Shown here one piece after another: positions 11,657-18,702 of a stretch of 18,702 nucleotides of DNA. Source of the DNA: a virus (Duplodnaviria; Heunggongvirae; Uroviricota; Caudoviricetes); the IMG/VR virus record IMGVR_UViG_2690316273_000003, positions 1 through 18,702 of that record, one strand, 5' to 3'. Every line of letters begins with the position of its first letter. The first letter of the stretch is position 1. The notes beneath the pieces are model-generated. The model was not told the DNA's origin, searched no databases, and worked only from the letters and a program-made list of their open reading frames with translations. The position numbers were made by a program, and so were the translations under genes.

Positions 11657-12354
11657 AGATTGCTTTAGTTCTTCGCTCTGGTGGTGACTATAACGCTTCC
11701 GATGTGCAGTGGCTGGTTAATCAACTGCCAAAAGGCTATGAAATTATTTGCCTGACAGACCTGAAGCGTTTACATGTACCTGGCGTCAAAGTTGTCCCAT
11801 TGATCAACCAGTGGCAAAAGTGCCGTGGCTGGTGGGCGAAAATCGAGTTGTTCCGACCGGATATAACCGATGATCTGTTCTATCTGGATTTGGACACAGT
11901 TATTGCCGGTGATATACGCCCAATCCTTGAGAATCCACCAACCAGCTTCACCATGCTTAGGGATTTTTACCATCCACAATATCGTGGTAGCGGTGCCCTG
12001 TGGATACCAAATAGTGTAAAAGCGCATATCTGGAGTGCATTCTGGCAAGATCCGGAAGGTTGGGTTGCTCGTTGTGTTACTACTGAATGCTGGGGTGATC
12101 AGGGGTTTTTGCGGAAGGTTATGGGTGATGATACACCAGCATTTCAGGATCTGTATCCGGGATGGTTTGTAAGTTACAAGGCCGATGTTGTGGAACCTGG
12201 TTCGAAATATGCAAGCGCGCGTTACTCCAGGGGGAATGGGGCATTACCAAAAGACTGCCGAATAATCTTTTTCCACGGCAAACCGCGACCTCGCGAAGTG
12301 TCAGAGGATTGGCTTTCCCTTATTAGCTCATTTTTTGAGCAAAAATCAGAATAA
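11653..12354 (+). CDS. GT-A fold glycosyltransferase-like protein with DxD motif (GT8-like)
   Basis: 233 aa. Its start overlaps the phosphatase stop (ATGA). Hydrophobic strand followed by DxD ([14 protein letters not shown]) as in nucleotide-sugar-dependent GT-A enzymes. The C-terminal FFHGKPRP is loosely reminiscent of the GT8 H-x-x-G-x-x-KPW motif. No TM segment. Confidence 0.5.
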
Positions 12355-12355
12355 T

Positions 12356-12372
12356 ATTGCTCTAATAATTCC
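12356..12372 (+). promoter_or_regulatory. P1 C1 operator-like site (left arm of an inverted pair)
   Basis: ATTGCTCTAATAATTCC matches the C1 operator consensus at 14/17, with the first 13 positions exact. Starts one base after the stop of the GT-A gene. Confidence 0.5.
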
Positions 12373-12380
12373 ATATTTTT

Positions 12381-12410
12381 AAAACGTGATGTACACTCAT
12401 CACGTTTTTT
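12381..12410 (+). terminator. rho-independent terminator at the end of the phosphatase/glycosyltransferase operon
   Basis: Perfect 11-bp stem AAAACGTGATG / CATCACGTTTT with loop TACACT, followed by further T residues. The A-run/T-run symmetry makes it potentially bidirectional. Confidence 0.7.
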
Positions 12411-12421
12411 ATTAGAGCAAT
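12405..12421 (-). promoter_or_regulatory. P1 C1 operator-like site (right arm, inverted orientation)
   Basis: The reverse complement reads ATTGCTCTAATAAAAAA (14/17 to consensus). It forms a perfect 13-bp inverted repeat with 12356-12368 and lies 15 nt upstream of the ATG at 12436. Confidence 0.45.
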
Positions 12422-12435
12422 CTATAAGGTGCACT

Positions 12436-12654
12436 ATGTGGCCATTCCGACGGAAATATCACTACTGGCTGATCGCCTTTGTTACGCCGACCGGCGGTAT
12501 CAGGCATGTCATCACCAGGTATCGCAACAAGAGACTCACCTTAGCCAGAATTTTACAGGCTGCCATAGGTGAGGGACTGGATACAAATTGCGTAGTCCTT
12601 CCACCTTCATACTTAGGAAAAATGACCGAAGCACAAGCTAATACGGAACTTTGA
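12436..12654 (+). CDS. hypothetical small protein (72 aa), first gene of the operator-bounded cassette
   Basis: ORF with AAGGTG 6 nt upstream of the ATG. Its stop is 1 nt before the start of the 420-aa gene. No motif. Could be a small regulator or partner protein. Confidence 0.35.
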   Translation: MWPFRRKYHYWLIAFVTPTGGIRHVITRYRNKRLTLARILQAAIGEGLDTNCVVLPPSYLGKMTEAQANTEL

Positions 12655-12655
12655 A

Positions 12656-13918
12656 ATGAGCACTTCAGCACAAAACCAATCAATCGAAAATGTATCTATC
12701 CCTGACGTCCTGAATGCCGGTATCCCGGCCATTATCCAGAACATCCGGGCCGCGCAACGCCGCGTTAGTTGTGATGACCTCACAGCACGTTTTTTTGATA
12801 ATGCGGTTCAGTCAGCGGAGATGCTTCACGCACAGCTTATTGATGTTTATAACGCAGAAGCTGATAGCCATAACTCCATGGTAGATGCAGCTGAAAATAT
12901 GCAGTTGGATCTCGGTCTGAAGGGTAAAGAAATTGAAGAGCTTCAGCTGGAAATTGAACATTTGAAACGCCAGCAACAGGACGCGATCGACGATGCGACG
13001 CATGACGCCAACCAGCGTGCTGATAATGCCGAACGTATAAGCATTGAGCTGGAAACAAAACTCAATGAAATGACCACGATGGTTGAACTGCGGAACTCAC
13101 AGATTTCAACGCTAAAATCTCAATATAAAGAGATCATGAAACTTGATCCTTTTAACCTTGAGAAACGCTATAACAAAGCTAAAAGCGAGCGACAGGAACT
13201 GCGTAAGCAGGTCGCCGACCTTAACCAACAGCTCAAAAAAACTATTAAAGATGCAAGCGAAGCGCGCGTGGCATTTGCTAATAAAAAAGCAGAGGTTACC
13301 GCGCTGGTTAATGAGAATGCCAAATTTGCGACGCTCAAGAAGGAAATGTATGGCATTACTGAGCGCCGTTTCCCTGCAAGCAAACTTCATCCGACGTTAG
13401 GGCAAATCTCCTTCTTCCCGCGCCTCCTGGCTTATGGGATCTCATCGCCTAAAGAGTTCAATAACGAGCGTCCTTATATCGTTTCTAAGCTGGACTTTGC
13501 TTATCAGTTCTGCTGCGACATGGGCTATGCCATTGATATCCGGATCAACGAATGGTTGATGCCAAACTTCCAGCCGTTGGCCATTTTCCGCGAGTTCCAG
13601 CCGGAAGGTTGGGTAGAGTTCTTCCATGAATTGATCTGTAAAGAGATGGAAAGCCGCCGCCCGGAACTGGTCCGTCGAGTTGAGTGGGCGCAAGAGGTTA
13701 TGTTGGCAGAGGCAGAGCTGCCGTTCGAATCGGAATTTATTGATGATCTGGGAGCTAAAGGGCTGCATACCCTGTTTGATGTGGTTACCCGCCGTCATGA
13801 GCAGTTGGTTGTCGAATTGGGTTTAGAGGAAACAGCGGCAAGAAGACTTCTCGATGTTTGCTATGCACGTAGCGATGCATGGGAAAAAGAGAACGGCGGC
13901 ACTATTTACGTTCGCTGA
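12656..13918 (+). CDS. hypothetical protein with a long coiled-coil N-terminal half and an uncharacterised C-terminal domain
   Basis: 420 aa. Residues about 60-240 are heptad-like and rich in E/K/Q/L (LKGKEIEELQLEIEHLKRQQQDAIDD...RQELRKQVADLNQQLKK). The C-terminal 180 aa are globular with several Cys/Trp. No catalytic motif recognised. The gene looks more AT-rich than its neighbours by eye. Confidence 0.6.
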   Translation: MSTSAQNQSIENVSIPDVLNAGIPAIIQNIRAAQRRVSCDDLTARFFDNAVQSAEMLHAQLIDVYNAEADSHNSMVDAAENMQLDLGLKGKEIEELQLEIEHLKRQQQDAIDDATHDANQRADNAERISIELETKLNEMTTMVELRNSQISTLKSQYKEIMKLDPFNLEKRYNKAKSERQELRKQVADLNQQLKKTIKDASEARVAFANKKAEVTALVNENAKFATLKKEMYGITERRFPASKLHPTLGQISFFPRLLAYGISSPKEFNNERPYIVSKLDFAYQFCCDMGYAIDIRINEWLMPNFQPLAIFREFQPEGWVEFFHELICKEMESRRPELVRRVEWAQEVMLAEAELPFESEFIDDLGAKGLHTLFDVVTRRHEQLVVELGLEETAARRLLDVCYARSDAWEKENGGTIYVR

Positions 13919-13940
13919 CAGTTACAGTGTCACTTTTAAT

Positions 13941-13971
13941 GCTGGTGGAGTGCGCCCACCAGCATTTTTTT
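13941..13971 (+). terminator. rho-independent terminator after the 420-aa gene
   Basis: Stem GCTGGTGG / CCACCAGC with loop AGTGCGC, followed by ATTTTTTT. Begins 23 nt after the stop codon. Confidence 0.75.
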
Positions 13972-13990
13972 CGTCCAATGAGGAGGGCAT

Positions 13991-14497
13991 TTGAGTATTT
14001 TCAATAAACACGCACACCAGGAACGTCCGTACATCGTCATAGTAGATATTGATGGGACGATATCAGAGGCAACGGAAGACAGGCTGCATTTACTTCCACC
14101 ACCTGGCAAAGGTGCATTAACAGAGCACTGGAACGAGTTTAACCTTGCCTGTGACACTGATGCTCCCATCACTCCAGTTATTGATATGGTGCGCCAGTTG
14201 TCCGGCATTTACACCCTCTGGTTTGTAACCGGGCGCTGTGAGATAGCCAGGGATAAAACACGAGCCTGGTTGCGTAAGCACGTAACAAATGGGGCTGAGC
14301 CTTTGCTATCTATGCGTCCTGCCACCGATGACAGAAATGACGGTCCAGCAAAGATTGATCTCCTGAAGAAAATTGGTCTAAGTAAAATTGCGTTCGCGCT
14401 GGAAGATAAGATTGAAGTGGCGCGTGTTTTCAGGAGTCACGGCGTACTTACGTTAATGGTCAGGGAGTATGAAAACGCGCTTCTTCATCAACAATAA
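13991..14497 (+). CDS. HAD-superfamily phosphatase-like protein
   Basis: 168 aa from a TTG start with a strong RBS (AGGAGG 5 nt upstream). HAD motif I VIVDIDGTI (DxDGT). Candidate motif II at WFVTGR. An Asp-rich segment near the C-terminal third (ATDDRNDG). Confidence 0.5.
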   Translation: MSIFNKHAHQERPYIVIVDIDGTISEATEDRLHLLPPPGKGALTEHWNEFNLACDTDAPITPVIDMVRQLSGIYTLWFVTGRCEIARDKTRAWLRKHVTNGAEPLLSMRPATDDRNDGPAKIDLLKKIGLSKIAFALEDKIEVARVFRSHGVLTLMVREYENALLHQQ

Positions 14498-14513
14498 TTG
14501 CTCTAATAAATCT
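14497..14513 (+). promoter_or_regulatory. P1 C1 operator-like site (best match in the window)
   Basis: ATTGCTCTAATAAATCT matches the consensus ATTGCTCTAATAAATTT at 16/17. Overlaps the TAA stop of the HAD-like gene and precedes the operon starting at 14596. Confidence 0.55.
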
Positions 14514-14595
14514 TGATTTTTAAAACAGAGAAAGTGAAAATAAAAACATGCCGCAAGGCGCGGCATGTATCCAATCAATCACAGGAGCTGAAAAT

Positions 14596-14682
14596 ATGAA
14601 CACGGCATTCAAAATCATTATGGCCGCGATCTATTTCTGGCTGTTCTCTATCACTTTTGGCGGCATCGTCGCACATGGGTAA
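14596..14682 (+). CDS. small hydrophobic peptide (28 aa)
   Basis: Hand-translated MNTAFKIIMAAIYFWLFSITFGGIVAHG with RBS AGGAG 8 nt upstream of the ATG. Single predicted TM helix. Lies just upstream of the ASCH gene. Confidence 0.3.
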   Translation: MNTAFKIIMAAIYFWLFSITFGGIVAHG

Positions 14683-14691
14683 GGGGGATGC

Positions 14692-15273
14692 ATGAAAGGC
14701 GAAGTGAAAGAGCGCGGCATGATTTTTAACGATGAGATGGTCAGGGCAATTCTTGGCGGGAATAAAACACAGACTCGCAGGATTGTTGAAGAAAAATTCT
14801 ATGGACGGGCAGTGGCCGCAGAGTTGCTTGCTAAACATTGTCCATATGGTCAACCGGGAGATCGTATTTGGGTTCGTGAAACCTACCGGGTACATGGCAA
14901 AGCGACGGACGTCGCAACGCTGGTTTATCGCGCAAGCGTGCGTAACTCCTGGACAGAACAAACGCACCGGGTTCCGGTTGAGGTTTGTAATAAGCCAGTA
15001 TCAGAAAAGTGGACGCCATCAATTCACATGCCGCGCTGGGCATCGCGCATTCTTCTGGAAATTACCAACGTGCGCGTTGAGCGGTTGAACGATATCAGCG
15101 AATGCGATGCAAGGGCTGAGGGCGCACCAACAGAATCGACCCTCATTGGCGATAAGCATTACCCAGGTTTCCGCAGCCTATGGAAATCAATTTATGGCGA
15201 AGATAGTTGGAACGCTAATCCTTGGGTGTGGGTAATAGAGTTTGAGCGTATTCAGGGGGCAACCAGTGAGTGA
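14692..15273 (+). CDS. ASCH domain protein (PUA-like fold)
   Basis: 193 aa with RBS AGGGGG upstream. N-terminal MIFNDEMVRAILGGNKTQTRR matches the ASCH signature (hydrophobic-x-x-x-ail-G-K-T-x-x-R). Confidence 0.6.
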   Translation: MKGEVKERGMIFNDEMVRAILGGNKTQTRRIVEEKFYGRAVAAELLAKHCPYGQPGDRIWVRETYRVHGKATDVATLVYRASVRNSWTEQTHRVPVEVCNKPVSEKWTPSIHMPRWASRILLEITNVRVERLNDISECDARAEGAPTESTLIGDKHYPGFRSLWKSIYGEDSWNANPWVWVIEFERIQGATSE

Positions 15274-15532
15274 GTCAAAATGCCAAATTAATGGCAACAA
15301 GATAGAACCGTGCGCGGCGTTGGCACAATCCCTGGAGCATGACGCTGAATACACGACGCGAAAAGGTCTGCTGAAATACAAAATCTATAACCATGAATTA
15401 ATTCATTCACAAGACCTGATCATGCTGCGGTCTGGTGAATTTTCTAAATCGCCTATTCGAGTTTCATTTTGCCCGTTCTGTGGTGAAAGTCTGAAAACGT
15501 GGGAAGCGGAGGCAACCAGTGAGCAAAATTAA
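15266..15532 (+). CDS. small zinc-ribbon protein (about 88 aa)
   Basis: GTG start overlapping the ASCH stop, with RBS AGGGGG. Cys pairs KCQINGNKIEPC and CPFCGE. The track lists a TTG start at 15242. Confidence 0.4.
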   Translation: MSESKCQINGNKIEPCAALAQSLEHDAEYTTRKGLLKYKIYNHELIHSQDLIMLRSGEFSKSPIRVSFCPFCGESLKTWEAEATSEQN

Positions 15533-16220
15533 CTATCAGGCACTACGTGAGATAGCAAAACAGGCAACACAGGGCGAATGGGTCGCGTTTATTTCGACGG
15601 GTACAGGTACGTATGCTGTGCATACGCCCGGTGATAAACGATGTGAAGATGTTATCAAATGGACCGGCTTTGATGGACTGAAAAACGCAGAGAACAACGC
15701 TCGTTATATTGCCGCATTCAACCCAAAGGTTGCACTGGAGCTACTTGGTGAAATTAAGCGCCTGGAGGACACAAATATTGATGCTATGTGCCGAATAGCA
15801 CCGCTTGAGACTAAGCTCGCGGCTCTGGTGGCAGAGAACGCCGGGCTGAAACACGCAATGGCTGTAACTCTTGATCATGTGTCGGTCACGGATGCAGGGC
15901 AGGCCGGAGTTGCTGCAATGATTATCAACGATGCCCTACACCACAGCGAAACTCCAGCTACCGATGCTTTTCTGGCTGAAATTCGTGCGGAAGCACGCAA
16001 CGAGGGGATTAACTATACCGCCAGCCGTCTTGCTGCTGCGTTCAATCACGGATTTATCAATAAGTCTTTGCGTGAAGTTTTCGACGTTACGCGCATGATT
16101 CTGTCAGCGAAAGAAGAGTTGGCTAATGAACCGTACCCGATTGATGGCCTGTCCGGTGAATATGCGGAGAAATCCCTTGAAGAATGGGCGGAACAGATTC
16201 GCAAAGGAGCTGACAAGTGA
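15519..16220 (+). CDS. ead/Ea22-like family protein
   Basis: 233 aa from a GTG start with RBS GGAGG. N-terminus INYQALREIAKQATQGEW and central YIAAFNPKVALELLGEIKRLED match the conserved Ea22-like blocks of lambdoid early regions. Confidence 0.7.
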   Translation: MSKINYQALREIAKQATQGEWVAFISTGTGTYAVHTPGDKRCEDVIKWTGFDGLKNAENNARYIAAFNPKVALELLGEIKRLEDTNIDAMCRIAPLETKLAALVAENAGLKHAMAVTLDHVSVTDAGQAGVAAMIINDALHHSETPATDAFLAEIRAEARNEGINYTASRLAAAFNHGFINKSLREVFDVTRMILSAKEELANEPYPIDGLSGEYAEKSLEEWAEQIRKGADK

Positions 16221-16627
16221 AGAAGATGATTTTTGTCGCGGCATTGTTGGTGAATATCCAACAAGTGCATGCTTCAGCAGCTATTGTAGCCTCTACCGCC
16301 GCGACTACGGCTGCTGTAGCTGCTGCGAACTCTGCGAATATCGCAAACCAACAGGCACAGCGTGCTGCTAATGCATCAGCCAGCGTTCACCCAATCACCA
16401 TTAAGAGCAGTAAGCAAAATCTGGGATTCATAACGTGCGGCACGCGTTCTAATGAAGCTGTAGGCTCACTGGGATGTACGGTATATGGCGATAGTGAGCG
16501 CAGAGAAATTCCATGGAAAACGTGGCCCGGATACGTTCTCGGATCGAAGCTCCCTGCCAGCTACGAAGTAAATGCCGTATCGTTTGATCACTATAACGGC
16601 GTGGCAACTGTCTATTTTACATACTGA
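16217..16627 (+). CDS. putative secreted/periplasmic protein with N-terminal signal peptide
   Basis: GTG start overlapping the upstream stop with RBS AAGGAG; an alternative ATG lies at 16226. Signal-like MIFVAALLVNIQQVHA followed by an Ala/Thr-rich linker. Two Cys in the mature part. C-terminus ends in aromatic YFTY. Confidence 0.5.
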   Translation: MKKMIFVAALLVNIQQVHASAAIVASTAATTAAVAAANSANIANQQAQRAANASASVHPITIKSSKQNLGFITCGTRSNEAVGSLGCTVYGDSERREIPWKTWPGYVLGSKLPASYEVNAVSFDHYNGVATVYFTY

Positions 16628-16635
16628 GGCTCCGC

Positions 16636-17301
16636 ATGAAATTCTCCAAATTTTCTGAGTTGGTGAATCGTATTTTGTCCAACAACCACAGCCATCGTCG
16701 CGATATGGATGTAACGATCGTTGTTCATTCGCCTGGCAGCATTGGTTCAACACCATCAGTTGAGGTTCAGTCAATTCACGCTGGTTTTGATTGGGATTCC
16801 GGGAAAGTGCTGATTTTCCCAGCACAGCCACTGACCACGCTAACACCAGAACAGATTACTGATATTACTGATAGTGTGCGCAAAGGTCAGTCCTGGCACG
16901 CATATCAGGAATACAAGAAGCATAAAGAGCAGTTGGAAAAATTATCGATTGAACTTGATGCCGCAAAACAGCGCATTGCAGAGCTGGAGGGTAATTTCAC
17001 GGTGCTGGCAGTGGAGAATGCCTCAATGAAGCTGTTTATCAGGGGTTGTTGCTACGTGTTTGATGGCGAGCAGGATGAAATATCTGATGCGTATATCTGC
17101 GCAAGAGACGGAGGCATGCCGCAAACCCCGGCTACAGATGCTCTCCTGGCTGATGTACGGGCGGTGGCGTTTGACGAACTTCGCGCGGCGTTTGTCAGGC
17201 ACGCAAAAGTTGCAGGACTGGATGATGCCGATACCGTAACGCTTAAGGAAGTGACAGAAGCATTGTTGCATTGTGCGGAACAGATTCGCGCGCCTGAATA
17301 A
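16636..17301 (+). CDS. Ea22-like modular protein (shares a C-terminal module with the 15519 gene)
   Basis: 221 aa. Central coiled-coil (KEQLEKLSIELDAAKQRIAELEG). C-terminal block QTPATDALLADVRAVAFDELR...LHCAEQIRA parallels ETPATDAFLAEIRAEAR...WAEQIRKG in the upstream Ea22-like protein. Confidence 0.55.
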   Translation: MKFSKFSELVNRILSNNHSHRRDMDVTIVVHSPGSIGSTPSVEVQSIHAGFDWDSGKVLIFPAQPLTTLTPEQITDITDSVRKGQSWHAYQEYKKHKEQLEKLSIELDAAKQRIAELEGNFTVLAVENASMKLFIRGCCYVFDGEQDEISDAYICARDGGMPQTPATDALLADVRAVAFDELRAAFVRHAKVAGLDDADTVTLKEVTEALLHCAEQIRAPE

Positions 17302-17397
17302 TTAAATTTAGTGTTGTAAATAAAATTTAATCCTTAACCGGAGGGATTTCTGCACCCTCATAACATCAGGAGGCCGCCCGAGGGGCGGTAATGAAAA

Positions 17398-18111
17398 ATG
17401 GCTGAATTAACAAAAGAACAATTAATCGAAGAAGCTAAATTAAAAATAGCGATTGCGAAATGCCATCCCAATTCAGGCGTGGCACGAGTAGAGGGTGAGT
17501 TATTCAAAATTGCACTGGCATCGCTGGAAGCAGATCCAGTTGCTTATATTTTCAAACATCCGGCCGGGAAATTATTCTGGGCTTTAACGGATGAAAGCAA
17601 TAAAGAGCAAGCGGACGTTATTCCTGTTTATGCTGCCGCGCCTGCGTCGGTTGTGCCGGATAATGCATCAGAGCCTCTTGCTTATGCTTACAAAGAGCTT
17701 ACGCCTGAGATTATGCGCAACCATTTAGCTGTATTCGAGCGATATGGAATAGCCCCAAACGATAGCTCTACCACAATTCAGGCACTGCGAATCGCGCTGG
17801 ATGGCATAGAGCGGAGCGACGCCATGCTTCATGGTGCCGAACCTGTAAGCCAAACTTACAAGTTGAACCAGCTATCGGGCAACTCTCCGGTAACTCCGGA
17901 TGATTGGATAAGCTGTAGTGAGCGAATGCCGGATAGCAAAACAGCTGTTCTTGTTGCCAGGGAGTTTGACAGGAAAGGTGACTGGCGAATGAAGTGGGCG
18001 ACTTACATACCGGGACATCCTGACGCTAATGATGGTTGGATAATTCCTGGTGCGTCGTGGATTCCATCACACTGGATGCCGTTACCAGAACCGCCGCAGG
18101 AGGCAAAATGA
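17398..18111 (+). CDS. DUF551 domain-containing phage protein
   Basis: 237 aa. C-terminus WISCSERMPDSKTAVLVA...GWIIPGASWIPSHWMPLPEPP matches the DUF551 signature (W..C.ERLP...THWMPLPEPP). Confidence 0.7.
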   Translation: MAELTKEQLIEEAKLKIAIAKCHPNSGVARVEGELFKIALASLEADPVAYIFKHPAGKLFWALTDESNKEQADVIPVYAAAPASVVPDNASEPLAYAYKELTPEIMRNHLAVFERYGIAPNDSSTTIQALRIALDGIERSDAMLHGAEPVSQTYKLNQLSGNSPVTPDDWISCSERMPDSKTAVLVAREFDRKGDWRMKWATYIPGHPDANDGWIIPGASWIPSHWMPLPEPPQEAK

Positions 18112-18368
18112 TGGATGTAAAAGAGAAGGTTTTGCAGGTGATGCGTTCCCGTGCTGCCCTGCAAGAGAAAGCTCTCGGCGGGGAATATCCATTCACGATA
18201 GCAACCTGGAATCTGCGGTTGGCAATGGAGAAGGAATTTCCTGATGAAGAATGGCGTTCGGCAGATTTGCGCAAAATTCTTATTGGGATGGCTAAAGACG
18301 GAACAGTATCCAAAGATACCCATGCCAGCCGGATTGGTCAGGCGGTATGGAGACTGGAGGTGAGGTAA
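18108..18368 (+). CDS. hypothetical protein (86 aa)
   Basis: ATG overlaps the upstream stop (ATGA) with RBS AGGAGG. The track lists a longer ORF from 18036 that would overlap the DUF551 gene. No motif. Confidence 0.5.
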   Translation: MMDVKEKVLQVMRSRAALQEKALGGEYPFTIATWNLRLAMEKEFPDEEWRSADLRKILIGMAKDGTVSKDTHASRIGQAVWRLEVR

Positions 18369-18442
18369 TGAGCTGGCCTGAAGCATTTGCGATTGTAGGC
18401 GTAGCTATGGCGATTGCCGCTATTTTTATCTTCTGGGGGTAA
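18368..18442 (+). CDS. small hydrophobic peptide (24 aa)
   Basis: Hand-translated MSWPEAFAIVGVAMAIAAIFIFWG. Its ATG overlaps the upstream stop (TAATG). Single TM helix. Confidence 0.3.
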   Translation: MSWPEAFAIVGVAMAIAAIFIFWG

Positions 18443-18444
18443 CG

Positions 18445-18657
18445 ATGGGAAAATTAACTTTTGTAGTCGAATTTGAGGATGGCAAAGAGCCACCTGTTAG
18501 CGCCAATCTTGATGTTGCTGGTGGCAGGCTGGTTTCGGTTCTATTTGGTGATTACCGCGACGACTTCTTTCAGCCTGAAGAAGTTGATGTAGTGCGAGAA
18601 GCATTAAACGAGCTAAGTGCTGATGAATCCCCTAATGATTTTTATCAAAATCATTAA
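18445..18657 (+). CDS. hypothetical acidic small protein (70 aa)
   Basis: ORF starting 2 nt after the previous stop. Acidic composition. No motif. Confidence 0.45.
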   Translation: MGKLTFVVEFEDGKEPPVSANLDVAGGRLVSVLFGDYRDDFFQPEEVDVVREALNELSADESPNDFYQNH

Positions 18658-18702
18658 GTTAAGGTAGATACACATCTTGTCATATGATCAAATGGTTTCG
18701 CC

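Follow-up and report, generated by a model that had tools for sequence, protein, structure and literature searches.

A 66-bp extended palindrome lies between the genes pmgQ and pmgR of a tailed-phage sequence, and it raises the question of what has been kept there: one long RNA hairpin, a pair of binding sites for a repressor, or a terminator and a promoter packed into the same few turns of DNA. We analyzed this locus within a stretch of 18,702 nucleotides (IMG/VR record IMGVR_UViG_2690316273_000003, positions 1–18,702), which is referred to as the window. A preliminary description of this DNA had read the palindrome as two inverted operator copies bracketing a terminator hairpin, by which the end of an upstream operon is coupled to repressor control of a downstream cassette. 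The present analysis suggests, with a probability of about three in four, that two transcription units meet within these 66 bp, which would hold C1 operators, a terminator, and a nested promoter.

Identity of the window and prior annotation

Sequence comparison of positions 11600–14000 with phages P1 and P7 gave 98.2–98.7% identity, and other P1-like phages matched likewise; by this measure, the window is from a P1/P7-like phage-plasmid. It spans approximately 69.8 to 88 kb of the P1 map. The c1 gene is outside the window, and a related contig (L174) carries a gene for a C1 repressor (PF27008) nearby. The 271 bases around the site (12250–12520) matched 687 plasmid records, mostly from Escherichia and some from Salmonella.

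Other parts of the window were also compared with known sequences. The right part, from about 14500 to 18702, was collinear with no single phage record; the best matches covered 28–42% of it and were a mix of P1-like phages (SJ46, JL22, and P7) and lambdoid/Stx-phage ea22-like genes, which is consistent with the pmgT–humD variable region described for P1-like phage-plasmids. At the right edge (18665–18702, minus strand), a partial match to the Rfam family RNA-OUT, the IS10 antisense RNA, was cut by the window end (44.3 bits against a gathering score of 41) and suggests an IS10-type element at this edge. A tRNA with the anticodon CAT, called Met by ARAGORN, was found at 1137–1212 on the plus strand and corresponds to trnI (tRNA-Ile2) of P1, located between tciC and ban.

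At the junction itself, the curated P1 record (AF234172) annotates both arms of the palindrome as binding sites of "phage repressor C1" under the names OpmgRa and OpmgRb, formerly Op86a and Op86b. According to this record, OpmgRa "controls expression of pmgR and pmgS", and OpmgRa and OpmgRb are each "monovalent". Their equivalents in the P7 record (AF503408) are Op(sht[a]) and Op(sht[b]). When the P1 and P7 annotations were transferred to the window (window coordinate = L001 coordinate + 8599), the annotated C1 sites of both records mapped exactly to 12356–12372 and 12405–12421, in orthologous positions. The stretch from operator b to the ATG reads CTATAAGG in the window and CTACAAGG in the P1 record. 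Since both records have carried the operator pair for years, the core finding, namely inverted operators before a repressor-controlled cassette, was already known; the comparison of the hairpin among lineages, the fixed length of the module, the verdict on the pairing of the arms, and the placement of the -10 element are added here. The features of the junction are listed in Table 1.

Table 1. Features of the pmgQ–pmgR junction and the downstream unit (window coordinates)
Feature	Position	Strand	Basis
pmgQ (P7: hdmD), final gene of the ppp-pmgQ unit upstream	11653..12354	+	ORF list; P1/P7 annotation
C1 operator OpmgRa (Op86a; P7 Op(sht[a])), ATTGCTCTAATAATTCC	12356..12372	+	Annotation AF234172/AF503408; consensus match
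Annotated predicted sigma-70 promoter PpmgR	-35 TTGCTC 12357-12362; 17-nt spacer; -10 TAAAAC 12380-12385	+	AF234172
Candidate -35 TTCCAT of the loop-centred promoter	12369..12374	+	PWM; overlaps 3' end of OpmgRa
Hairpin	Left arm 12381-12391; loop 12392-12397; right arm 12398-12408	+	Sequence; fold; covariation
G+C core CGTGATG/CATCACG	12385-12391/12398-12404	+	Sequence
Candidate -10 TACACT (the hairpin loop)	12392..12397	+	Alignments; PWM
U-tract TTTTTTATT; bases shared with the 3' part of OpmgRb (opposite strand)	12405..12413	+	Sequence
C1 operator OpmgRb (Op86b; P7 Op(sht[b])), ATTGCTCTAATAAAAAA	12405..12421	-	Annotation AF234172/AF503408; consensus match
Shine-Dalgarno TAAGGTG, 4 nt before the pmgR ATG	12425..12431	+	Sequence
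pmgR	12436..12654	+	ORF list; P1 annotation
pmgS (P7: shtB), 420 aa, follows pmgR in the controlled unit	12656..13918	+	ORF list; P1/P7 annotation
Intrinsic terminator-like hairpin TGCTGGTGG-AGTGCGC-CCACCAGCA, then TTTTTTT	13940..13964	+	Own scan, d = 31.8

Geometry of the palindrome and its C1 operators

The outer arms, ATTGCTCTAATAA (12356–12368) and TTATTAGAGCAAT (12409–12421), are 13 nt long and 100% complementary, with 40 nt between them. They enclose a perfect hairpin at 12381–12408, in which AAAACGTGATG (12381–12391) and CATCACGTTTT (12398–12408) form an 11-bp stem, also 100% complementary, with a 6-nt loop. Both the exact inverted arms and the 11-bp stem of the preliminary description were therefore borne out by the sequence. 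The RNA fold prediction that it had proposed was carried out on 12340–12435 and gave one interrupted hairpin with a folding energy of -26.9 kcal/mol (z = -6.7), with none of 200 shuffled sequences as stable. The stop codon of pmgQ (TAA, 12352–12354) ends 1 nt ahead of operator a, and the pmgR ATG (12436) comes 14 nt past the right arm, close to it as had been noted.

By annotation and by consensus match, the two 13-nt arms are the cores of two 17-bp asymmetric C1 sites lying in inverted orientation before pmgR–pmgS, and the earlier reading of the arms as inverted repressor operators agrees with the P1 and P7 records. The C1 consensus is an asymmetric 17-mer, ATTGCTCTAATAAATTT, with 22 sites in P1, and C1 has a co-repressor, Lxc, and an antagonist, Coi (PMC8546580). 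OpmgRa and OpmgRb match this consensus at 14 of 17 positions each, the first 13 being exact. Three exact copies of the 13-mer were present in the window, and five copies were found when up to two mismatches were allowed, compared with 0.51 expected; none of 200 shuffled sequences reached five. Among the P1-clade contigs examined, the arms were invariant in all but one variant. A bivalent C1 operator, in which two overlapping 17-mers form one incomplete palindrome, was considered for this site and rejected, since 32 bp lie between the 17-mers and the annotation calls each of them monovalent. Elsewhere in the window, a match to the C1 operator core with two mismatches, ATTGCATTAATAA, was found on the minus strand at 2857–2869 in the ban/dbn gene junction; it is unannotated in P1 and is probably due to chance (0.5 such matches expected in the window).

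Scanning viral contigs (twice) and genome contigs for relatives of PmgS yielded almost exclusively sequences of 98–99% identity, which gave no depth; depth was obtained by protein search and contig look-ups. Orthologous junctions beyond the P1 clade came from Cronobacter phage JK004, Salmonella plasmids, and the contigs L172 and L168–L170, with PmgS homologues of 63% identity in L172 and 52% in L168–L170. A DNA pattern scan of viral and metagenome contigs returned only variants of the known lineages and five hairpin-less chance matches. Measured from the first base of operator a to the last base of operator b, the module was exactly 66 bp long in all ten loci tabulated, which represent about five lineages with PmgS identity down to 52%. 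One P1-clade variant had an extra T in the module.

The most distant relative, L173 (contig ERR12361609_339; PmgS homologue 27%), had no C1-type site upstream of its pmgR-like gene. In the equivalent place (2204–2250), it had an inverted repeat of its own with perfect 15-bp arms, AAGATACTAATTTAT / ATAAATTAGTATCTT, separated by 17 nt; the repeat was unique within the 6.3 kb of sequence covered and had a CTAAT core common to the C1 site. A diverged repressor may use this repeat as its pair of operators.

The inner hairpin as a putative terminator

The preliminary description had placed a terminator between the operators, and the anatomy of the inner hairpin agrees with this. The predicted folding energy was -8.5 kcal/mol for the core (CGTGATG-TACACT-CATCACG) and -13.4 kcal/mol with the A.U extension, directly after which TTTTTTATT follows. 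Taken by itself, the 7-bp G+C core, with four G-C pairs, leaves the tail TTTTTTAT. The core begins at 12385, just past the end (12352–12354) of the co-oriented gene pmgQ. A built-in promoter/terminator scan of 11500–13200 listed nothing at the hairpin, probably because the full 11-bp stem leaves just four T in the 8-nt tail window. We then used our own terminator scorer, in which A.U base pairs may count as tail and which follows a d'Aubenton-Carafa-type formula. With this scorer, the hairpin at 12385–12404 with the tail TTTTTTATTAGA gave d = 10.7 on the plus strand and d = -20.7 on the minus strand. Scores above 10 were obtained at only three sites on the two strands of the whole 18.7-kb window, 13940–13964 (plus strand, 31.8), 12385–12404 (plus strand, 10.7), and 14567–14547 (minus strand, 34.1), and at no site in 10 shuffled sequences. 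The putative terminator is thus modest in P1, with d = 10.7 and a 7-bp core. The hairpin at 13940–13964, which lies 22 nt past the pmgS stop codon, is the best plus-strand site in the window and is absent from the P1 feature table. The minus-strand site is a very strong terminator-like hairpin, written as AAAAATAAAAA-CATGCCGCAAGGCGCGGCATG on the plus strand (14547–14567), and lies between OpmgT and pmgT; P1 annotates no minus-strand gene around it, and the P1 record notes a resemblance to E. coli sequence downstream of hsd loci.

Among the eight lineage representatives, d was positive on the plus strand in six (10.7–28.4) and negative on the minus strand in all eight. L168 and L170 have kept the hairpin and lost the U-tract (TCTTGATT, d = -25.6), so that termination cannot be the sole reason for the retention of the hairpin. 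No Rfam family matched the locus at the gathering threshold, and the tRNA and RNA-OUT were the only matches elsewhere in the window. The feature tables of AF234172 and AF503408 list no terminator at the hairpin; the strong hairpin after pmgS is equally unlisted, and the missing entry is therefore uninformative. A literature search for mapping of P1 transcription start sites and terminators, Term-seq, 3'-RACE, and 5'-end data found none, and a P1 RNA-seq preprint gives gene-level changes only (bioRxiv 10.64898/2025.12.28.696737). A minus-strand function of the hairpin was rejected on the basis of the lack of an annotated minus-strand gene, the negative terminator scores, and the weaker folds. 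Taken together with the comparative evidence described below, the anatomy suggests that the hairpin is a plus-strand intrinsic terminator for transcripts of the upstream pmgN–ppp–pmgQ unit.

Promoter candidates and the downstream unit

The preliminary description had expected a promoter overlapping the structure, and one is predicted in the P1 annotation as well as by scoring across lineages. Scores were calculated with a simple sigma-70 position weight matrix (PWM). In all eight lineages, the best match between pmgQ and pmgR was a candidate centred on the hairpin loop. Its scores were 6.4 bits in P1 (TTCCAT-17-TACACT), 8.4 bits in Salmonella, 10.2 bits in JK004 and L172, and 11.8 bits in L168/L170 (TTGATT-16-TATTAT), and its -35 element was weak in P1 (TTCCAT) and stronger elsewhere (TTTACT, TTGATT). 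As background in the window, scores of at least 6.4 bits occurred at 4.55 per kb-strand and scores of at least 10.2 bits at 0.19 per kb-strand, and 11.8 bits was never reached. In the loop hexamer, T1, A2, and T6 were invariant and positions 3–5 varied, giving TATCAT or TATTAT outside P1; this T-A-x-x-x-T invariance is the pattern expected of a -10 element. An extended -10 element was tried and rejected, since the TG before the loop abuts the hexamer directly and is not one base away from it. Based on these comparisons, we prefer the loop-centred promoter to the annotated PpmgR, with a confidence that comes close to even odds.

The same layout with PpmgR as the promoter would be the less likely arrangement, at odds clearly below even. 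Transcription would then start in the loop, C1 bound to OpmgRa would block the -35 element, and OpmgRb, at about +13 to +29, would act as a downstream roadblock or as a cooperative partner. PpmgR was annotated by the P1 genome authors (AF234172), and its score of 5.2 bits in P1 and the Salmonella lineage is near that of the loop-centred candidate. Its hexamer pair TTGCTC-17-TAAAAC recurs after OpmgT within a stretch in which 26 of 30 nt are identical, which favours the annotated promoter in P1. However, the -10 element of PpmgR is not conserved, being TGAAGC in JK004 and TGCGGC in L172, and the scores were -2.2 bits in JK004, -4.4 bits in L172, 0.2 bits in L168, and -5.6 bits in L170. In addition, TAAAAC does not end in the T that is highly conserved at the last position of -10 hexamers, and the match at OpmgT may stem from common ancestry and not from function; the best candidate there is a different one, which scores 10.3 bits and has its -35 element at the 3' end of the operator. 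These comparisons suggest that the annotated -10 element of PpmgR is probably misplaced. The likeness between the two operator regions extends over 14497–14526 (from OpmgT) and 12356–12385 (from OpmgRa), including TTTTTAAAAC beyond the operator, and points either to duplication of an operator-promoter module or to a functional element common to both.

It is also conceivable, with a rather small probability, that the 66 bp contain no promoter at all and that pmgR–pmgS is transcribed by partial read-through of a leaky terminator, the C1 sites being roadblocks that tighten termination together with the hairpin in the lysogen. Both P1 promoter candidates are weak, and neither passed the built-in promoter scan, which uses a 9-of-12 consensus; the terminator is just moderate, and the annotated upstream sources of transcription are the Oppp/PpmgN unit, which is under C1 control, and a late promoter, LPpmgL. 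On the other hand, read-through would leave unexplained that the loop keeps T-A-x-x-x-T across lineages and that the candidate in L168/L170 attains a score unmatched anywhere in the window, and the fixed span of 66 bp is easier to explain by operators placed around a promoter.

The leader of the pmgR transcript would be about 32–44 nt long under either candidate promoter, with a Shine-Dalgarno sequence in front of the ATG, and the "nearly leaderless" transcript of the preliminary description is not supported. On this reading, pmgR–pmgS would be a two-gene unit with a terminator on either side. Deletion analysis has reported that pmgR is essential and that pmgQ and pmgS are non-essential (PMC10695390). 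PmgQ, PmgR, and PmgS had no Pfam match above the cut-offs.

Conservation of base pairs across lineages

The covariation of the inner stem was evaluated by aligning 17 distinct sequences over 28 nt without gaps, with L172 left out, because a 66-nt MAFFT alignment gaps the stem of L168/L170 and L172 pairs in another register. In this alignment, which rests on about five lineages, 97.3% of the cells were paired and four of the 11 pairs showed compensatory changes, and none of 500 shuffled alignments scored as high. The stem core was CGTGATG/CATCACG in P1 and CATGGTG/CACCATG or GTGTGGTG/CGCCACAT in others. All non-Watson-Crick inner pairs in the lineage representatives were G.U pairs, and these were on the plus strand only, so that the fold of the plus strand was kept and that of the minus strand was weakened. 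The folding energy of the plus strand was -13.4 to -16.5 kcal/mol in all eight representatives, and that of the minus strand was -5.8 to -11.0 kcal/mol in the six with wobbles. In L172, the stem in the P1 register is replaced by CGGCATG/CATGCCG, a 7-bp G+C stem three positions off register, followed by TTTTTT (d = 28.4). Against this pattern, rare single variants within the P1 clade were of five types that keep a wobble pair and five types that break a pair. The covariation, the strand-specific wobbles, and the re-registered stem of L172 point to selection for a plus-strand RNA hairpin before a U-tract, i.e., for a terminator of pmgQ-side transcripts.

The outer helix formed by arm a and arm b showed a different pattern. 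Compensatory changes were found at none of its 13 pairs, every departure resulted in unpaired cells, and shuffled alignments scored as high in 500 of 500 cases. In L168/L170, G4 of arm a is changed to A and an A of arm b to C; these changes are uncompensated, and the outer helix is shorter. The lack of covariation suggests that two inverted protein sites give rise to the 66-nt RNA hairpin as a by-product, and the conservation of the arms is sufficiently explained by their match to the known protein-binding consensus. Thus, the "one long interrupted hairpin" of the preliminary description holds as a stable predicted fold and is not supported as a functional RNA, since the outer helix does not covary and each arm substitution breaks a pair.

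Accordingly, we consider it very improbable that the 66-nt interrupted hairpin works in its entirety as an RNA element, for example as a long stem by which the pmgQ transcript is processed or stabilized at its 3' end: the fold is very stable and was predicted in most lineages, but the uncompensated changes that shrink its outer helix, and the sufficiency of the repressor sites, speak against it. Equally hard to sustain is the notion that the inner palindrome is a DNA site for a dimeric protein (a phage or host regulator), for which its perfect 11 bp in P1 and one Salmonella lineage and its persistence in L168/L170 without a U-tract may be cited, given that the stem sequence is unconserved with compensatory pair changes, that the stem of L172 lies in another register, and that the plus-strand G.U pairs of the lineage representatives are mismatches in DNA and on the minus strand.

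Proposed organization of the junction

In the organization that we prefer, the hairpin and the T-run, which is also the 3' end of OpmgRb, would stop transcripts arriving from the upstream pmgN–ppp–pmgQ unit. With less certainty, a sigma-70 promoter for pmgR–pmgS would be nested in the same 66 bp. Its -35 element (12369–12374) would abut OpmgRa, its -10 element (12392–12397) would lie in the loop, and transcription would start near 12403–12405; with the annotated alternative PpmgR (-10 element at 12380–12385), the start would be near 12392. From either promoter, the pmgR transcript would begin without the left arm of the hairpin, so that the hairpin could not form and the transcript would escape the terminator.

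In the lysogen, C1, together with its co-repressor Lxc, would cover the -35 element and the upstream region when bound to OpmgRa and the region of about +1 to +17 (or +13 to +29) when bound to OpmgRb, and the promoter would be shut. When C1 is inactivated, pmgR–pmgS would be transcribed as a two-gene unit ending at the 13940–13964 terminator. The pairing of the operator arms in RNA would be a side effect of their inversion rather than a selected structure. With the loop-centred promoter, the placement of operator a over the -35/upstream region and of operator b over about +1 to +17 would give a simple reason for the fixed span of 66 bp.

In its most specific form, the proposal is that of a three-in-one module, in which the terminator holds the core promoter of the next unit, with the loop as the -10 element and the start at the foot of the descending arm, and is clamped by two inverted sites for a monomeric repressor at a fixed distance, one of which doubles as the U-tract. 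We regard this form as tentative, its chances falling a little short of one half. If true, it would correct the annotation of PpmgR in P1 and would explain the exact length of 66 bp even where the hairpin shifts register.

Significance and comparison with known systems

The junction is a case of ordinary phage gene control, and its reach beyond the biology of P1 is limited. What is gained is the separation of a protein site from an RNA structure, a likely terminator that is absent from the records, and a predicted pmgR promoter that is probably to be corrected. Resistance genes are commonly carried by P1-like phage-plasmids, and pmgR is reported to be an essential gene of morphogenesis; an accurate transcription map of this region would therefore be of some use in engineering. 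The module would also be a compact natural case in which one unit is insulated and the next is repressibly started within 66 bp.

The closest known systems are OpmgRa/OpmgRb with PpmgR in P1 (AF234172) and Op(sht[a])/Op(sht[b]) in P7 (AF503408), which have the same position, sequence, and flanking genes; the 66-bp segment of the window is their orthologue and shows no material difference. OpmgT (Op88), O26 (Op82), and Oppp (Op83) likewise have a 17-bp asymmetric C1 site that overlaps or abuts a predicted sigma-70 promoter, and at OpmgT the best -35 element begins at the 3' end of the operator, as in the model with the loop-centred promoter. However, these three are single sites, and only at the pmgR junction do two inverted sites, spaced by 32 bp, bracket a putative terminator hairpin.

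The bivalent C1 operators of P1 consist of two overlapping 17-bp sites that form an incomplete palindrome. They also provide two inverted C1 sites per promoter, whereas the sites of the pmgR junction are non-overlapping, with 32 bp between them, and are annotated as monovalent. In compact phage and bacterial genomes, an intrinsic terminator, with a G+C-rich stem and a U-tract just past a stop codon, may overlap the promoter of the next unit, and such promoters start inside or after the hairpin, so that their transcripts are immune to the terminator. Compared with these general terminator-promoter overlaps, the pmgR junction differs in that half of a repressor operator coincides with its U-tract and in that its loop may be the -10 element.
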